Of a DNA stretch of 64,000 bases, positions 14,408 through 64,000 are shown piece after piece (position 1 is the first letter of the stretch; the number at the start of each line of letters is the position of its first letter). Position numbers and translations under genes: made by a program. This stretch comes from an uncultured Candidatus Saccharibacteria bacterium. Lineage in GTDB: Bacteria > Patescibacteriota > Minisyncoccia > Phycocordibacterales > UBA9973. The notes beneath the pieces are model-generated. The model was not told the DNA's origin. It did not search any database and saw only the letters and a program-made list of their open reading frames with translations. The stretch is taken from NCBI GenBank assembly GCA_964426555.1, contig CAYRQJ010000003.1:1229-65228 (forward strand), read 5' to 3'.

Positions 14408-15511
14408 TTAATTTTTAACCATAAGCTTTTTAGTTAGTATTCCATACCGATTATCAACCAATATGGTATATAAACCGGTTGGAAGATTCTGAATTTCTAA
14501 AAAATTGTTTAATTCTTGAGAATTAGCTTCGTAAACCACTTTTCCATAAAGATCTGTGATTTGAATTTTATTTTCCAAAAGTTCAGTACCTTTTAAATCA
14601 ATAATTACAATATCAGTAGAATTAGCCGGATTAGGATAAACAACCATTTCTGGCTTTCCACTTAATTCTGTACCAATCTTTGGCATAACTATTGGAGAGT
14701 ATTCAAACTTATCATCATGGTCAATCTGCTTGATTCTATATGCACAGAATTTTATTGGCATATTATCAATAAATTCATAGTACAAATTTTGACTTGAATT
14801 TCCGGCACCTTTGATAGTTCCGATTCTTTCAAAATCTTTACCATTTACAGTGCGTTCGATTTCAAATCGATCATTATTGATTTCTGTAGCTGTAACCCAA
14901 TTAATGATATTTTTTATTCCATTAATTTTTGCACCTACTGTTAACCATGTAACTGGTAATGGGCTATTTGTGGCATCTAGGGTAAAGATTGTGTAATAAA
15001 AATCATCATCACAATCAAAAGCAACACCTGAAAATTTAACTTCAGTACTAGTAGTACTACTAGCTCCGCTAACTAGAGCAGTCCAATTTCCACTGGTTCC
15101 GGTCCTGCGAGCTAATATATAATTACTAGCAGTTCCAGGAGAAACAGAAACCCCATAATCTGGGAAGTTAAAAATAAAATCTACAGAATATGTATGATTT
15201 CCAGAATGATGCCCCGCATCAATCCGATACACAACATCCCATCTTTCATCTGCGCTAGAGATTCCCGAGATATCGGTATTATTCATTGCTCCTGTAGTTC
15301 CAGAACCTGAGTAAAAATCAATATTATGCTGTGGATTAGAAGCAAGCACCAATTTCAATGCACCATTAGTATAAGTGCCTGCATTTGAAATAGTTGTTTG
15401 TGCAAAAGCTTTTTCAAAGCCAATGGTAAATAGTAAGATCATCATAACTGACGAAATACGAAATCTGTTGCTCACTAGAGCTTCTTTTGGTAAAAAATTT
15501 TTAAATAACAT
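14408..15511 (-). CDS. secreted protein with C-terminal T9SS (Por secretion) sorting domain
   Basis: 367 aa with an N-terminal signal-like hydrophobic stretch. Last ~85 aa 'MVVYPNPANSTDIVIIDLKGTELLENKIQITDLYGKVVYEANSQELNNFLEIQNLPTGLYTILVDNRYGILTKKLMVKN' closely match the Por_Secre_tail/TIGR04183 CTD consensus (VYPNPA..., ..I.DL.GK.V, ..L..GLY.I.V......TKKL.V.). Confidence 0.6.
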   Translation of the reverse strand: MLFKNFLPKEALVSNRFRISSVMMILLFTIGFEKAFAQTTISNAGTYTNGALKLVLASNPQHNIDFYSGSGTTGAMNNTDISGISSADERWDVVYRIDAGHHSGNHTYSVDFIFNFPDYGVSVSPGTASNYILARRTGTSGNWTALVSGASSTTSTEVKFSGVAFDCDDDFYYTIFTLDATNSPLPVTWLTVGAKINGIKNIINWVTATEINNDRFEIERTVNGKDFERIGTIKGAGNSSQNLYYEFIDNMPIKFCAYRIKQIDHDDKFEYSPIVMPKIGTELSGKPEMVVYPNPANSTDIVIIDLKGTELLENKIQITDLYGKVVYEANSQELNNFLEIQNLPTGLYTILVDNRYGILTKKLMVKN

Positions 15512-39047: not shown

Positions 39048-39170
39048 CCCGTTTAGAAGCAGGTCACGATCCAGATGGTCCCGTTAATGCTTTAGTTAAG
39101 TGAATAATGAATTTTATATTTATATATATCCTGTTCTTGTAATCGTGATCGTGGCTTCTAACGGGATAAC
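39045..39170. repeat. copy A of the palindromic intergenic cassette (between divergent serS and dprA)
   Basis: On the plus strand: CATCCCGTTTAGAAGCAGGTCACGATC ... AT-rich core ... GATCGTGGCTTCTAACGGGATaac. The CAT at 39045-47 is the serS start codon on the minus strand. Confidence 0.65.
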
Positions 39171-40740: not shown

Positions 40741-40858
40741 GTCCCGTTAGAAACCGCGATCGCAATAATAAAAAACATAAATATGAAAATACATTTAATC
40801 AACATTAAAAGAATAAATAAACAAGAACGTGATATGATCGCGATCTGTTTCTAACGGG
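40741..40858. repeat. copy B of the palindromic intergenic cassette; outer end runs directly into the topA ATG
   Basis: GTCCCGTTAGAAACCGCGATCGCAATA ... 65 nt AT-rich ... CGTGATATGATCGCGATCTGTTTCTAACGGG followed by ATG (40859). Contains the GCGATCGC and GATCGCGATC palindromes. Confidence 0.7.
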
Positions 40859-48526: not shown

Positions 48527-50053
48527 ATGGCAAAAATAAAATCATTACAAAGCTACATTGGCTATTTAATTAAAACTATTCGTGAGCGTGAAGGTTTGAC
48601 TCAATCCAAATTTGCAAAAATGTTGGATACTTCACAGTCGGCAATTGCAAGAATGGAAAAAGGTGACCAAAACTTTACAACTAAAGAGCTAGAAAGAATT
48701 AGTGATACGCTTGGTGAGAGACTTATTACTATTGCTCCAAAAGTAGACGACTTTGAAGTTGTTGGTGGTAAAAAATTATCTGGATCTGTAACTACACATT
48801 ATTCTAAAAATGGAGCATTGGCGTTAATGGCGGCGGCATTATTAAACGAAAATACAACTACTTTGTATGGTATTCCAAGAATAGAAGAAGTTTTTCGTTT
48901 TATAGAAGTTTTTGAAAGTATTGATATTAAAATAACTTGGATAGACGACCATACATTGCGCATTACCCCACCAGAAAAATTTGATATTGAAAACATCGAC
49001 GAAAAAATAGCCGGAGGAATTCGTGTAAATTTATATCTTATTCCACCATTAGCTCATAAAATGAAGGAATTTCGTTTACCAAATCCAGGCGGATGTAAAA
49101 TGGGAGAAAGAACAATTTCTGCACATAAATACGCACTGGAAAAATTTGGTATTAAAATCAAATCTGAAGCTAAACATTATTTAGTTAAAAATTCTAAATT
49201 AAAATCAGCCGACATTACACTGTATGAAGCGTCAGACATGGCTGCAATTAATGCACTTATGGCGGCGGCACTAATTCCGGGTAAAACAATAATTCGTTTT
49301 GCTCCACCAAATTACCAAGTACAAGATGTATGTTTCTTTTTAAAACATTTAGGTGTACGCATAGAAGGTATTGGCACAACTACACTAACAGTGTACGGCG
49401 TAGAATACATTAACGAAGAGACTGAATGGTATAACAGTGAAGACCCAATTGAAAGTATGTTTTTCTTAGCGGCTGGTATTGTTACAGGTAGTAGTATAAC
49501 TATAAAAAGATGCCCTATTGAATTTTTACGTCTTGAAATGTTAAAGCTAGAAAAGATGGGATTAAAGTATACAATGTCTAAAATTTACAAAGGCCAAAAT
49601 GGTCATGTGGATTTAGTAGATATAAAAATAAAAGAAAGTAAATTACGTGCACTACCGGACAAAATCCATGCATTACCTTTCCCGGGAATAAATAACGACA
49701 ATTTACCTTTCTTTGTGCCTATTTCAGCTGTTGCCAAAGGTACTACTTTAATCCACGACTGGACATGGGAAAATAGAGCAATCTATTTTACCGAACTTAA
49801 CCGTCTTGGAGCTAAAGTATTACTGGCTGACCCACACCGTGTATATGTAGAAGGTGGTAGCGAATTACGCGGAGCACAAATTGTATGTCCACCGGCACTA
49901 CGCCCGGCTACAATTATTCTTATTGCCATGCTTGCAGCCGAAGGTAAATCAATACTACGTAATGTATACGCTATTAACCGTGGATACGAAGGCTTGATAG
50001 AAAGACTAACTGAATTAGGTGCTGAAGTAAGCCAAGTCCAAAATCTAAGTTAG
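48527..50053 (+). CDS. murA: UDP-N-acetylglucosamine 1-carboxyvinyltransferase (MurA) with N-terminal XRE-type HTH domain fusion
   Basis: 508 aa. Residues ~10-65 'LIKTIREREGLTQSKFAKMLDTSQSAIARMEKGDQNFTTKELERISDTLGERL' form an HTH_XRE. The remainder is the EPT fold with the catalytic Cys loop 'NPGGCKMGERTISAHKYAL' and 'KNGALALMAAALL'. Confidence 0.7.
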   Translation: MAKIKSLQSYIGYLIKTIREREGLTQSKFAKMLDTSQSAIARMEKGDQNFTTKELERISDTLGERLITIAPKVDDFEVVGGKKLSGSVTTHYSKNGALALMAAALLNENTTTLYGIPRIEEVFRFIEVFESIDIKITWIDDHTLRITPPEKFDIENIDEKIAGGIRVNLYLIPPLAHKMKEFRLPNPGGCKMGERTISAHKYALEKFGIKIKSEAKHYLVKNSKLKSADITLYEASDMAAINALMAAALIPGKTIIRFAPPNYQVQDVCFFLKHLGVRIEGIGTTTLTVYGVEYINEETEWYNSEDPIESMFFLAAGIVTGSSITIKRCPIEFLRLEMLKLEKMGLKYTMSKIYKGQNGHVDLVDIKIKESKLRALPDKIHALPFPGINNDNLPFFVPISAVAKGTTLIHDWTWENRAIYFTELNRLGAKVLLADPHRVYVEGGSELRGAQIVCPPALRPATIILIAMLAAEGKSILRNVYAINRGYEGLIERLTELGAEVSQVQNLS

Positions 50054-60604: not shown

Positions 60605-60616
60605 TTGTCATTTAGT

Positions 60617-60688
60617 GCCTCGTGAGGGGATCGAACCCCCGACCATCTCCTTAAGAGGGAGCTGCTCTACCAGCTGAGCTAACAAGGC
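60617..60688 (-). tRNA. tRNA-Lys (anticodon CTT)
   Basis: Reverse complement: acceptor gccttgt/acgaggc, D-arm tagctcagctggtagagca, anticodon loop cTCTTaa, T-arm ggggg-ttcgatc-ccctc. Confidence 0.7.
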
Positions 60689-60789
60689 AAAACAAAAATT
60701 AAAATTTTGTTAAGTTAGTTTATAATAAATAAACATAAAAATCAATCTGCTATTGAATATTTTCTTAAAATAGTATAAAGTATATCCAT

Positions 60790-60871
60790 GCCGAGGTGGC
60801 GAAATTGGTAGACGCACTGGTCTTAGGAACCAGCTCCGCAAGGAATGGAGGTTCAAGTCCTCTCCTCGGCA
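60790..60871 (+). tRNA. tRNA-Leu (anticodon TAG)
   Basis: Acceptor gccgagg/cctcggc, anticodon stem ctggt/accag with loop cTTAGga, long variable arm, T-arm ggagg-ttcaagt-cctct. Confidence 0.8.
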
Positions 60872-60888
60872 CACGCCCTCACCCAATT

Positions 60889-60974
60889 GCCCGAGTGATG
60901 GAATGGTAGACATAGGGGACTTAAAATCCCCAGGACATAGTCCGTGTGGGTTCGAGTCCCACCTTGGGCACCAA
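60889..60974 (+). tRNA. tRNA-Leu (anticodon TAA), CCA encoded
   Basis: Acceptor gcccgag/cttgggc, anticodon stem gggga/tcccc with loop cTTAAaa, long variable arm, T-arm gtggg-ttcgagt-cccac, 3' ACCA. Confidence 0.8.
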
Positions 60975-61106
60975 GAGAGCACGCAAGGCGTGCGTGTGGA
61001 CGAGAAAACCTTTTCTATATTTATGAGCCCCGTTATGTTCTCGGGGTGAATAAATAGAAAAGGTGTACAGATCCTGTAAGGATCGAGTTCTGGTATTAAA
61101 TAACAA

Positions 61107-61178
61107 GGTCCAGTCGCCAAGTGGTAAGGCAAGAGTCTGCAAAACTCTTATACGGCGGTTCGATTCCGCCCTGGGCCT
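61107..61178 (+). tRNA. tRNA-Cys (anticodon GCA)
   Basis: Acceptor ggtccag/ctgggcc (one G-U pair), anticodon stem agagt/actct with loop cTGCAaa, T-arm ggcgg-ttcgatt-ccgcc. Confidence 0.75.
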
Positions 61179-61193
61179 CACTAAACGACAATA

Positions 61194-61224
61194 TAAAAAA
61201 CCGCTATTAATAGCGGTTTTTTAT
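61194..61224. terminator. bidirectional intrinsic terminator (accgctattaatagcggt)
   Basis: 7-bp stem with A6 and T6 flanks, between tRNA-Cys (+) and the pilin-like genes (-). Confidence 0.55.
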
Positions 61225-61231
61225 ATTTATT

Positions 61232-61480
61232 TTATGAAGCAGATTGTAATGTATTTATAAGTAAGTTTAATATTCCATAAACTCCAAACATTATAAACAA
61301 ACCAATTAATCCCCACATCATATGTTTAGTCCCCTTGTTTCTAGCTTCTTCACTGCTAGCATCCATTATCATTTCAACTACTCCCCAAATAAACACAACC
61401 AGGGCAACTATAAACATTAGTTTAATTAAAGGTTGTACAATATTTGAGACCAATGCTCCGATAATTTTGGAACTATCCAT
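61232..61480 (-). CDS. TrbC/VirB2-like pilin paralog P1 (two-helix small membrane protein)
   Basis: 82 aa. Hydrophobic helix 'LMFIVALVVFIWGVVEMIM', charged loop 'DASSEEARNKGTKH', second helix 'MMWGLIGLFIMFGVYGIL'. Same architecture as P2-P4. Confidence 0.5.
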   Translation of the reverse strand: MDSSKIIGALVSNIVQPLIKLMFIVALVVFIWGVVEMIMDASSEEARNKGTKHMMWGLIGLFIMFGVYGILNLLINTLQSAS

Positions 61481-61488
61481 AAATTAAA

Positions 61489-61890
61489 TTAACAGTTTTG
61501 ACTTTGACCAGGAACACAAGGAAGTGTTACATCAGCAGAACCAGGTGTACCAGTACCTAATGTACGACGTACGATAGCTACAAGACCCCAAATTGTTGTT
61601 ATAACGAATAGACCCAACACACCATACAAGATTGTACCTTGAGCTTTCTTTTGAGCTTCTTCCCCACCACTACGTCCTGCAATGATGAATTGCACTACAC
61701 CAATGATGATCATTAAGATAGCAAACCCTACTAAAACACGAATGAACAAGTTCATTAATGATTGACCAGTACTAAGGATTGTTCCTACTGTTTGTGGACC
61801 AGTATAAGCTGGACCAACGTTAGTAGTACCCTGAGCAAATGATGCAATAGGAGCCAAGAAACCGAAAGCAAGTATTAATAAATTACGCAT
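61489..61890 (-). CDS. TrbC/VirB2-like pilin paralog P2
   Basis: 133 aa. Signal peptide 'MRNLLILAFGFLAPIASFA', helix 'FIRVLVGFAILMIIIGVVQFIIAG', loop 'RSGGEEAQKKAQG', helix 'TILYGVLGLFVITTIWGLVAIVRRTLG'. Cys-containing C-terminal tail. Confidence 0.5.
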   Translation of the reverse strand: MRNLLILAFGFLAPIASFAQGTTNVGPAYTGPQTVGTILSTGQSLMNLFIRVLVGFAILMIIIGVVQFIIAGRSGGEEAQKKAQGTILYGVLGLFVITTIWGLVAIVRRTLGTGTPGSADVTLPCVPGQSQNC

Positions 61891-61979
61891 ATTAAATGAA
61901 AATTCTTTGTTAATAATATAGTCTTATTATACTATATATTCTTATAATCAAGCAAGGAAATAAGGTCTTTTGTGTATAA

Positions 61980-63326
61980 CTATTTTATAATAATCTTTAC
62001 TTCGTTAGTTACATAGACTTTACTAGTTGTAATATCTTTATAGTGATACATTATACAACTTTGTGTCCCGGAGCCTGGTATTGTATAAGTTGGAGAAGTA
62101 TAACCAGTATCAGCAGTTAAGCTTTTATTAGAATTTTTTTCTAAAATATTCGGTCCAATAGTTCCGTCTCCTCCAATTATTTTGCATTGCACAAATAACA
62201 CACCATTATATGGAGTAAATGATTTATTAACATCCCAACCAAATTTACCTGTTACTGATCCAGCTTTTTCGCTAATCTTACTAAATGTTAAATTAGCAGT
62301 ATAAGGATTTGGAGTAATAGCATCTTTTGTTATTAAAGGAAAATTACCACTTGTTGTACCAGAACTTGTATTATTATTTGAAGCTGGCGCTTGACTACCA
62401 GCAGTAAGTAAGCTTTTTGAAGTATAACCAAGAAATGTTTTATCAGATTTAAAGATATTCCAAAAACCACTGGTTTCCCCACTAACATTTAAAACAGTTC
62501 CATAAGCATTTTTAGTAATAATATTGGCTGATGAAGCAGTGCTTGGGTCAGATCTTAGGTTTGCACCATTTAGAGCATTTACATAGTATTGTTTCAAAGT
62601 TCCAGCTACAGGAGAATTATCCGCAGGAGGAGTTACTACTGGGTCAGTTTTAACTGAATCACCCTGAGAATTTGTTGGTTCTTTTGCTACATCTTTTTGA
62701 GTATTAGGGTCTACTACTGTTCCAGTATTTGTTCCGTTGGTAGTTGTATTACCAGTACCCACCCCGGTTGTTGTATTATTATTTAAAACTGCACCTGCTG
62801 TTGCTGTTCCGTTAGAATTATTTACATTATTAACTACCCCAGCATTGGAGCCTGAATTAACTAGATTATTATTGTTGGTAATACTGGAATTACTAACCCC
62901 ACTGTCTTTTGAAATATTTGAAACAGTATCAATAATTACATTTGAAATTAACTGTGCCCCAAGAATTATTGCGGCCCCAATCAAAGTCCAAGTTAAAGTT
63001 TTATGAGCTGTTTCGATTGCTTCTGGTTTACCACGAGCAACAACATATAAGAATCCAGAATATATAACCATTACAATAATAACTGGTATAGCAAACTCAA
63101 TCACAACTTTTAAAATTTTTGCAATTAAATCTTTGATTGTAGTAGTACAACCCGTACCACCTTTTTTGTCACAAATTGGATTATCAATTGCTACCTTTAA
63201 TTCAAAATTATCCGCCGGAGTAGCAGTTTTAGCATCTTGTGCAATTGCTAATTTAGGAAGCATTGCAAAGTTTCCAGAAAATACAACTATTAAAAACAAT
63301 AAAGATGTTAGAAAATTTTTTTTCAT
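61980..63326 (-). CDS. giant pilin-like paralog P3: TrbC/VirB2-like N-terminal module + N/T/G/S low-complexity linker + SH3b-like domain + unknown C-terminal domain
   Basis: 448 aa. Signal peptide, helix 'ILKVVIEFAIPVIIVMVIYSGFLYVVARG', loop 'KPEAIETAHKT', helix 'LTWTLIGAAIILGAQLIS'. A ~120-aa linker follows ('NNNNLVNSGSNAGVVNNVNNSNGTATAGAVLNNNTTTGVGTGNTTTNGTNTGT'), then 'YYVNALNGANLRSDPSTASSANIITKNAYGTVLNVSGETSGFWNIFKSDKTFLGYTSKSLL' (SH3_3-like). Start codon fused to the cassette C arm. Confidence 0.5.
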   Translation of the reverse strand: MKKNFLTSLLFLIVVFSGNFAMLPKLAIAQDAKTATPADNFELKVAIDNPICDKKGGTGCTTTIKDLIAKILKVVIEFAIPVIIVMVIYSGFLYVVARGKPEAIETAHKTLTWTLIGAAIILGAQLISNVIIDTVSNISKDSGVSNSSITNNNNLVNSGSNAGVVNNVNNSNGTATAGAVLNNNTTTGVGTGNTTTNGTNTGTVVDPNTQKDVAKEPTNSQGDSVKTDPVVTPPADNSPVAGTLKQYYVNALNGANLRSDPSTASSANIITKNAYGTVLNVSGETSGFWNIFKSDKTFLGYTSKSLLTAGSQAPASNNNTSSGTTSGNFPLITKDAITPNPYTANLTFSKISEKAGSVTGKFGWDVNKSFTPYNGVLFVQCKIIGGDGTIGPNILEKNSNKSLTADTGYTSPTYTIPGSGTQSCIMYHYKDITTSKVYVTNEVKIIIK

Positions 63327-63447
63327 CCCGTTAGAAGCAGATCGCGATCAAATCACGATTTTGCTTTATTATACTTATAATTTTACTTTTATTTAAATTC
63401 ATATATTTATTATCTTATCATATTGCGATCGCGGCTTCTAACGGGAC
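63324..63447. repeat. copy C of the palindromic intergenic cassette, in opposite orientation to copy B; outer end abuts the P3 start codon
   Basis: CATCCCGTTAGAAGCAGATCGCGATCAAATCACG ... AT-rich ... ATTGCGATCGCGGCTTCTAACGGGAC. The reverse complement aligns end-to-end with copy B. Confidence 0.65.
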
Positions 63448-63452
63448 AGGTT

Positions 63453-63998
63453 CTACTTTAAATTTAAAGCTTTATCTTTTAATTGTTCATAAGGCGCCGA
63501 ATCACCTGTATTTATACCAAAACCAAATGTTCTTCTTATAACAGCAACCAATGCATATACTGCTGTTATAACAAAAAAACCAATAATTCCATAAAGAATA
63601 AATTGTCTACCTTTTGCTTGAGATTCTTCACTTGCAGGATTACGAAGCATTACTGTGACTCCCCATACAAAAGAAACTGTAGCAATAGCAAAAATAAATG
63701 GCAGTATAGATACCCGAACTAAACAACCGATGTAATCTACATAACCACCAAATGTTTTATTGTTGCTAGCCACAGTACATGTATTTGTCCCAGCACTGCG
63801 CAAAATAGATGTATCATTATTAATATTACCTTCTGTTGTAATATTTACTTTTTCATTACCAACAACATTAGTATCACTGCCAACAAAATTATCCTCGGCT
63901 GTCCAGTTAACTGGACTATTTGTGTCGTCGGCTCCAAAACCACTAAACTGTGCATTTGTAAACACCGGTACAATACATATTAAAAGCATAACTAGCAC
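63453..63998 (-). CDS. TrbC/VirB2-like pilin paralog P4 (GTG/ATG start near window edge; may be slightly truncated by the window)
   Basis: 181 aa. Signal peptide 'MLVMLLICIVPVFTNA', ~90-aa Cys-containing N-terminal region, then helix 'LVRVSILPFIFAIATVSFVWGVTVML', loop 'RNPASEESQAKGRQ', helix 'FILYGIIGFFVITAVYALVAVIRRTFG' (C-terminus homologous to P2). Confidence 0.5.
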   Translation of the reverse strand: MLVMLLICIVPVFTNAQFSGFGADDTNSPVNWTAEDNFVGSDTNVVGNEKVNITTEGNINNDTSILRSAGTNTCTVASNNKTFGGYVDYIGCLVRVSILPFIFAIATVSFVWGVTVMLRNPASEESQAKGRQFILYGIIGFFVITAVYALVAVIRRTFGFGINTGDSAPYEQLKDKALNLK

Positions 63999-64000
63999 AC

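Follow-up and report, generated by a model that had tools for sequence, protein, structure and literature searches.

Tandem VirB2/TrbC-like pilin genes in a conserved chromosomal operon of Paceibacteria

What do four tandem genes for two-helix membrane proteins build in a reduced-genome bacterium, and does it depend on a type IV secretion system (T4SS)? These genes, here P1 to P4, lie at one end of a 64,000-nucleotide stretch of DNA (the window; contig CAYRQJ010000003.1 of assembly GCA_964426555.1, filed as an uncultured Candidatus Saccharibacteria bacterium). An earlier interpretation made from the letters alone (the sequence-only reading) had described them as four consecutive minus-strand genes of 82, 133, 448, and 181 amino acids (aa) that encode diversified pilin paralogs. 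Open reading frames (ORFs) of these lengths do lie exactly where they had been placed:

61232-61480, minus strand: P1, 82 aa, a minimal pilin-domain protein and the final gene of the array
61489-61890, minus strand: P2, 133 aa, with a signal peptide, a hairpin, and a Cys-loop C-terminal tail
61980-63326, minus strand: P3, 448 aa, with a signal peptide, an N-terminal Cys pair, a hairpin, and a long C-terminal extension
63453-63998, minus strand: P4, 181 aa within the window; its first 6 codons lie past the window edge

We find that P1 to P4, together with a fifth paralog (P5) that precedes P4 in relatives, belong to the Patescibacteria family of VirB2/TrbC-like proteins known as T4SS_pilin. Within a conserved operon on the chromosome, which runs from a binding-protein gene through P5, P4, P3, P2, and P1 to a terminator, P1 to P4 make up the distal part. 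As for what the operon makes, we think it most likely that a T4SS assembles a fibre in which P2 is the building block and P3 to P5 are fixed adhesive minor subunits. We put the probability of this at roughly 0.55.

T4SS_pilin (PF18895) is the top Pfam match for each of the four proteins. The scores for P1 (37.3 bits), P2 (31.2 bits), and P3 (28.4 bits) exceed the curated cut-off of 26.6 bits, as does the score for P5 (37.2 bits) from a near-identical strain (GCA_020049755.1, locus L001). P3 and its relatives also have sub-threshold matches to TrbC (PF04956; 18.6-19.6 bits, with P3 at 18.6, versus a cut-off of 27.9), and the best NCBIfam match for P1, P2, P3, and P5 is NF045849, at 17-33 bits, which is below its cut-off of 40. 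When 1.84 billion proteins were searched with a profile of the four cores, 34,416 cluster representatives matched at E ≤ 1e-3. To represent VirB2/TrbC, we used eight annotated genes from alphaproteobacterial plasmids, each located between virB1 and virB3 (obtained via tblastn), and we compared them by hhalign with an alignment of 404 domains from the family. The two aligned over 63 columns with both helices in register (score 27.4, P = 1e-4, probability 57.5%). If either profile was reversed, the score was ~10.5 and the probability was 0.2%; 20 column shuffles scored 6.5-11.3; and the control probabilities overall were 0.0-0.4%. The sequence-only reading had assigned these proteins to the conjugative or T4SS pilins, by family and by topology, and the PF18895 scores of P1 to P3, the alignment to VirB2/TrbC, and the flat controls support this. 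For homology to established VirB2/TrbC proteins in particular, the results lean towards a relationship but stay under the curated thresholds.

Could the four instead be unrelated two-transmembrane (TM) proteins, holin-like or generic, that match the pilin model by their hydrophobic composition only? P4 does fall under the Pfam cut-off, and searches by fold and by PDB sequence give only generic helical or TM matches: a Foldseek search of the P2 model against PDB had a best E of 0.29 with no pilin among the 50 best matches, and PDB sequence searches with family profiles of 4 and 25 sequences returned TM noise only. The fold searches could not discriminate between the readings. We consider a chance resemblance highly improbable because three of the four proteins exceed the curated cut-off, because the profile-profile alignment to VirB2 is in register and has clean reversed and shuffled controls, and because the family is kept across thousands of Patescibacteria. 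Also, there is no PHROG holin match, and the context is housekeeping without phage genes.

Two specific candidates were rejected. For a phage holin, PHROGs gave no match for P2 to P4 and two weak matches of unknown function for P1, and the neighbours are all housekeeping genes. For a type IV pilin (PilA/ComGC), reading the sequences of P1 to P4 turned up no class III signal peptide (G↓F/M-T-L-I-E); there are two TM helices, the signal peptides are of the ordinary AxA type, and Pfam gives no pilin or N_methyl match.

The common core that the sequence-only reading had seen in P1 to P4 was confirmed by BLASTP, hydropathy, and alignments as a two-helix hairpin of ~80 aa. Each protein has two long hydrophobic segments with a short charged loop between them. 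Over the hairpin core, BLASTP links P1 with P4 (E = 1e-15), P2 with P4 (1e-13), P1 with P2 (3e-10), P1 with P3 (5e-8), and P2 with P3 (1e-4); P3 and P4 have no direct BLASTP significance and are linked only via P1 and P2. The array paralogs are 16-41% identical. As we found no tandem or dispersed DNA repeats and no recombination cassettes among the paralog genes, P1 to P4 are old paralogs and not recent duplicates. The GC content of the array is the same as that of the remaining window.

Some details of the core are less uniform than had been thought. Sec-type signal peptides are predicted in P2 to P5, with likely cuts at SFA↓Q (SFA↓QG in P2), AIA↓Q, TNA↓Q, and TSA↓A, respectively. A signal peptide had been claimed for every paralog in the window, but P1 has none and starts directly at the conserved pre-TM1 segment. 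Similarly, the loop motif x-EE-A-x-K is found in P1, P2, and P4 but not in P3, which reads GKPEAIETAHK. P2 and P4 had been said to terminate at VAIVRRTLGTG and VAVIRRTFGFG; in fact both carry further tails, and P2 ends with LPCVPGQSQNC.

From the sequence, it follows that the hairpin should be inserted with both ends outside and with the short charged loop in the cytoplasm. If so, then the Cys pairs, low-complexity linkers, and added domains would therefore all face outward. The Cys residues of the mature proteins are always paired and lie in the N- or C-terminal parts, and the linker and added domains lie after TM2 or before TM1. An AlphaFold2 (AF2) model of P2 has helices at 36-74 and 77-111 that form a hairpin. 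In 24 close homologues of P2 (57-98% identical), the loop LPCVPGQxQNC has an invariant Cys pair (24/24).

The additions to the core differ between paralogs, as the sequence-only reading had noted: the ectodomains of P3, P4, and P5 are unrelated and are on the extracytoplasmic side. P3 has the hairpin core at aa ~61-140, followed by a low-complexity linker rich in N, T, G, and S. Its extension is large, as described, but it is C-terminal and ~310 aa instead of ~330 aa. Within it, aa 254-307 form a weak SH3-like stretch (SH3_3, 23.1 bits, below the cut-off) that is not confidently modelled, and aa ~335-448 (~115 aa) form a beta-sandwich in the AF2 model (predicted local distance difference test, or pLDDT, 74-81; the rest of the P3 model is poor). 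Foldseek matches this C-terminal domain to Ig/FnIII-like sandwiches, including an enterococcal adhesin, with marginal E values of ~1e-3. A comparison of 13 P3 homologues shows hardly any variation in the core, but the tail ranges from ~180 to ~530 aa and the number of Cys-pair modules varies. P4 has a ~90-aa N-terminal extracytoplasmic extension with one Cys pair. P5 has a ~620-aa C-terminal extension that is Cys-rich and beta-rich and that has no detectable similarity to the C-terminal domain of P3. In other species, the pilin extensions can be N-terminal.

The top-scoring members of the family include P0025 (820 aa), P0028 (302 aa), and P0034 (188 aa), which are continuous ORFs with 2-8 tandem hairpin domains. 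Unless such "pilin polyproteins" undergo processing, it is difficult to see how they could fit a simple helical filament.

The sequence-only reading also suspected that the array might run on beyond position 64,000. It does so in the near-identical strain and in three other related loci (L004, L005, and L006), where a fifth paralog lies upstream of P4. L001 also adds MRKYLG ahead of VLVMLL... in P4, which is 187 aa in full. The additional genes are at:

4150-7861 of L001 (past window position 64,000): P5 (782-791 aa; 749-791 aa over L001, L004, L005, and L006) and the preceding binding-protein gene, upstream of P4

The full unit in these four loci is gyrA, a methyltransferase gene, the gene for a MalE-like binding protein, P5, P4, P3, P2, P1, tRNAs, rbfA, and infB. 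The gene directly before P5 encodes a TM-anchored, distantly MalE-like solute-binding protein, and no ABC (ATP-binding cassette) permease or ATPase is encoded near it in these loci. In the window, the end of the array is marked by:

61190-61227, no strand assigned: a perfect 19+19-nt palindrome with flanking A/T runs, bidirectional and terminator-like, between P1 and tRNA-Cys

A tRNA cluster lies directly downstream of the array (60615-61179), with Lys-CTT on the minus strand and Leu-TAG, Leu-TAA, and Cys-GCA on the plus strand.

We scanned for related loci in one genome per species, using P1 and five relatives (a 6-sequence alignment) as the query. The counts that follow are for the best 80 of 383 relatives, nearly all of which are labelled Patescibacteria. 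A P1-like gene is terminal in nearly all 80 loci, and there are 4-7 co-directional pilin-domain genes, most commonly five. In 71 of 71 loci, the binding-protein gene is upstream and co-directional, and the median gap is 2 nt. Recurring neighbours around the array include gyrA, the methyltransferase gene, infB, rbfA, and clpB. If paralogs are compared between loci, the best hit is at the same position for 84% of last genes, 46% of penultimate genes, and 45% of genes that are fifth from the end (~20% is expected by chance). The anatomy of the operon is conserved across related species, and the gene order is partly conserved across Paceibacteria.

Some of the related records are peculiar. L002 (Logan contig SRR12762275_777468) is a near-perfect palindrome, with P3-like, P2, and P1 genes followed by P1, P2, and P3-like genes on the opposite strand, which probably arose as an error of assembly at the terminator hairpin. 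L076 (JBLNCF010000017.1) is labelled as a Bacillota metagenome-assembled genome (MAG) and has the same array and synteny. Many third-party annotation (TPA) MAGs that are titled "uncultured Candidatus Saccharibacteria" group with the Paceibacteria loci. The labels of L076 and of the Saccharibacteria records are probably unreliable, or else the MAGs are mis-binned.

Codon usage gives a hint as to which subunits are abundant. Relative to 43 other genes in the window, P2 is enriched in ATC (7/14 Ile codons versus 100/1,594, P = 1e-5, Fisher's exact test). All five of its Arg codons are CGT, 15 of its 19 Gly codons are GGT, and NNC accounts for 50% of its two-fold pyrimidine codons (23% in other window genes). 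Among 62 related loci, the strongest codon bias was in the penultimate gene in 30 and in the last gene in 18, and the upstream genes were below background. Because this is the codon bias of high expression, P2 is likely to be an abundant or major subunit. By the same argument, we infer that P2 and perhaps P1 are abundant and that P3 to P5 are minor. A perfect TATAAT lies 36 nt ahead of the P2 start (this was found by eye; a promoter scan made no call there). The sole other gene in the window with raised ATC (11/33 Ile codons, which hints at high expression) encodes a 367-aa protein (14408-15511, minus strand) with a Por_Secre_tail domain, the C-terminal sorting domain of type IX secretion, in an apparently monoderm host.

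Are the paralogs interchangeable? The sequence-only reading had imagined a filament with "exchangeable tips," which is close to the idea that the paralogs are variants of one pilin for host-range switching or antigenic variation. This idea has been put forward for Patescibacteria arrays (PMC12102498), and the low identity of the paralogs (16-41%) and their completely different surface additions would fit it. However, every array position keeps a conserved orthologue of its own over distances at the class level, and the cores of P2 and P3 are strongly conserved, with core residues of P3 that are invariant in 13 homologues. The variation is confined to the ectodomains while the subunit set stays constant. 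Codon bias differs systematically by array position, and the paralogs have no DNA repeats or recombination cassettes. We therefore regard interchangeable variants as unlikely, and "exchangeable tips" fits poorly: the partly conserved order and the strong conservation of each paralog's core point to fixed, specialised subunits and not to swappable variants.

These considerations lead to the mechanism that we favour. The abundant building block would be P2 (and perhaps P1), given its small size and optimised codons. P3, P4, and P5 would be low-copy subunits that display unrelated ectodomains (the Ig/FnIII-like sandwich, a possible SH3b, and the 620-aa beta-rich region) for contact with host cells or cell walls. 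The subunits would be pulled from the membrane and polymerised by VirB4/TrsD/VirB3/VirB6-type machinery, which would be encoded elsewhere in nearly all relatives. This would yield a short pilus, or a fibre on the cell surface, that serves an epibiotic lifestyle rather than conjugation. Pilus formation by P1 to P5 and its dependence on a T4SS are, in this proposal, inferred. The presence of VirB4 in those relatives is taken from Table S1 of Quinonero-Coronel et al., 2025 (PMC12102498): we found six genomes with arrays in the table, and five of them are VirB4-positive, one of these being a Nomurabacteria genome with orthologues of P1 and P2 at 80% and 57% identity.

Several points weigh against a T4SS-assembled fibre. 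First, P4 scores 21.7 bits against PF18895, under the cut-off, although BLASTP ties it to P1 and P2 (1e-15 and 1e-13), and the AF2 model of P2 has moderate confidence (pLDDT 62.7). Second, the array is not near T4SS genes. The sequence-only reading had pointed to VirB4, VirB6, VirD4, or PilB/PilC genes as the flanking genes to look for, and there are none in the window's 62 kb; nor were any found up to 10 kb from the array in the ~80 related loci, none of which showed a VirB4-like ATPase at that range. In S. epibionticum, the pilins sit inside the T4SS cluster, whereas the array here is neither in nor near virB4. Third, the T4SS machine may have a pilin of its own, because in the available part of Table S3 of PMC12102498 a PF18895 gene sits two genes from virB4. 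Fourth, 300-600-aa ectodomains are hard to fit into the canonical, tightly packed VirB2 filament. Finally, a pilus of these proteins has not been seen in any Patescibacterium, and a 2025 review credits them only with a "potential to elaborate conjugative pili."

As to the genes that are nearby, the Walker-A candidates within 10 kb in the related loci proved to be Mfd/TRCF-like, ClpB, PrkA, and UvrA. The window holds only housekeeping genes (LepA, MurJ, LeuRS, penicillin-binding proteins, Mur ligases, MraZ/W, TopA, DprA, RelA, ParB, ClpB, and IF2), along with a DUF5671 protein that is typical of the candidate phyla radiation (CPR), and no phage genes were seen among the window proteins in the context of the array. 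In the part of Table S3 that was available, three Nomurabacteria genomes have a virB4-trsD-virB3 cluster in which a single PF18895 gene lies at a distance of two genes from virB4; eight more PF18895 pilins are near a second virB4 in one of these genomes.

The main rival explanation is that the complex works at the surface without a T4SS. The hairpins would remain within, or immediately above, the cytoplasmic membrane as oligomeric anchors or scaffolds that hold the binding protein and the ectodomains of P3 to P5, and, by analogy with the bindosome (discussed below), the scaffold would serve nutrient capture or attachment with no VirB4 motor. The tight and widespread coupling to the gene for the TM-anchored MalE-like protein (71 loci, median gap 2 nt) is what this would lead us to expect, as are the constant housekeeping surroundings, in which a search out to 10 kb in ~80 species turned up no virB4. 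The separate pilin beside virB4 in the three Nomurabacteria genomes (again, from the available part of Table S3), the one array-bearing draft genome that was scored VirB4-negative in Table S1, and the polypeptides with 2-8 fused hairpins, which suit assembly within the membrane better than a helical filament, also favour it. Yet the family is probably homologous to the filament-forming VirB2 pilins, and other Patescibacteria classes have arrays inside T4SS clusters, with which they are essential together. Dispersal of T4SS genes is common, and VirB4 is present in five of the six genomes with arrays. Furthermore, the binding protein has no ABC permease or ATPase partner nearby (in L001 and L004-L006). 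On this reading, the Paceibacteria operon between gyrA and rbfA-infB would make a surface organelle derived from pilins that functions independently of the T4SS motor, which we find possible but somewhat unlikely.

A short element separates P4 from P3 in this strain and recurs twice in the window:

63327-63447, minus strand: first copy of the element, a ~120-nt insertion that has terminal inverted repeats and lies after the P4 stop and before the P3 ATG
~39048-39167, minus strand: second copy of the element, ~120 nt
40741-40858, plus strand: third copy of the element, ~120 nt

The three copies have terminal inverted repeats of 21-23 nt (TCCCGTTAGAAGCCGCGATCGC ... GATCGCGATCTGCTTCTAACGGGA) around a variable AT-rich centre. 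In every copy, the 3' end (...CTAACGGG) directly abuts an ATG in the same orientation (P3, serS, or topA). The copy upstream of P3 has a 22-bp stem (folding energy −38.3 kcal/mol, z = −6.5) and a promoter-like TTTAAA-18-TATAAT in its loop (63397->63368). It is missing from L005 and L015, where P4 and P3 abut. The element matches no Rfam family; it may be a mobile promoter or leader, similar to a miniature inverted-repeat transposable element (MITE). Elsewhere in the window, at 48527-50053 on the plus strand, a MurA-like enolpyruvyl transferase (EPSP_synthase, aa 80-494) is fused to an N-terminal XRE-type helix-turn-helix domain (HTH_3, aa 15-64), which is unusual.

Divergent VirB2-like pilins in tandem arrays have already been reported from Patescibacteria (Wang et al., 2023; Quinonero-Coronel et al., 2025), and the current picture of them is unchanged by this locus. 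In a limited literature search, we found no mention of coupling to a binding protein, of conserved gene order, or of pilins that bear ectodomains; the same search found no report of the class-wide Paceibacteria operon (a binding protein with 4-7 pilins), its housekeeping surroundings, its separation from virB4, or the codon bias of P2. As the T4SSs of monoderms normally lack a pilin, VirB2-like arrays in monoderm Patescibacteria are regarded as being among the oddest features of these epibionts. The locus is a well-resolved example from Paceibacteria, with a possible split between a probable major subunit (P2) and minor subunits that bear ectodomains. Also, because the array is apart from virB4, it offers a clean way to ask whether such "pilins" need a T4SS.

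How does the operon compare to known systems? Like VirB2 of Agrobacterium, TrbC of RP4, and TraA of F, these proteins have a signal peptide and a two-helix hairpin whose ends are both outside, and the profile similarity extends over both helices. They differ in that the cytoplasmic loop is ~7 residues longer and has the EE-A-x-K motif, in that virB1, virB3, and virB4 are not adjacent, and in that the TrbC Pfam score is below the cut-off. The hosts of VirB2/TrbC are diderms, unlike the monoderm Patescibacteria. To our knowledge, extensions of 300-600 aa have no counterpart in VirB2/TrbC/TraA pilins. Bartonella and Anaplasma also have several divergent copies of virB2 in tandem. Those arrays are thought to serve antigenic or host variation, whereas here the order and sequence of the paralogs are conserved across the class, which suggests a division of labour. 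The pilin-like conjugal transfer proteins of the Mbov_0395 family (NF045849), from a Mycoplasma integrative and conjugative element (ICE), are likewise small hairpins in a wall-less or monoderm setting, but there is no ICE context here. The archaeal conjugative pili of the Ced/Ted type (PDB 8dfu and 8dft) are also among the closest known systems.

In the Sulfolobus bindosome, binding proteins are organised by pilin-like proteins; the bindosome relies on a PilB/PilC-type system and on signal peptides like those of type IV pilins, and it is unrelated to VirB2. A solute-binding protein is genetically coupled to pilin-type proteins in both cases, and the comparison is no more than an analogy.

The nearest relatives in kind are the other arrays in Patescibacteria, where VirB2-like pilin arrays are common and where the pilin series of S. 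epibionticum is essential (PMC12102498, PMC10633639, PMC12857230). Wang et al., 2023 (PMC10633639) described that essential series of predicted pilins within the T4SS cluster. Quinonero-Coronel et al., 2025 (PMC12102498) searched for PF18895 and PF04956 in 3,035 genomes and found VirB2-like pilins in 1,948 VirB4-positive assemblies, and near virB4 in 1,135. They reported 441 arrays in 383 assemblies, with 2-11 genes and a mean identity of 25% (maximum 54%), where the pilin genes of an array follow one another in tandem or have a single non-pilin gene in between. By this definition, the window holds an array of four genes and the full operon holds an array of five, with identities of 16-41%. 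The operon resembles the published arrays (S. epibionticum SEML1_0006-0019 and those in PMC12102498) in having PF18895 genes that are tandem and co-directional with low identity between neighbours, and in being chromosomal, in a monoderm reduced-genome bacterium, with no relaxase context. The arrays in PMC12102498 are most abundant in Microgenomatia and Saccharimonadia, while this one is in Paceibacteria. It also differs from the published arrays in that it follows a binding-protein gene in gyrA...rbfA-infB surroundings and in that 3 of its 5 members have large ectodomains.

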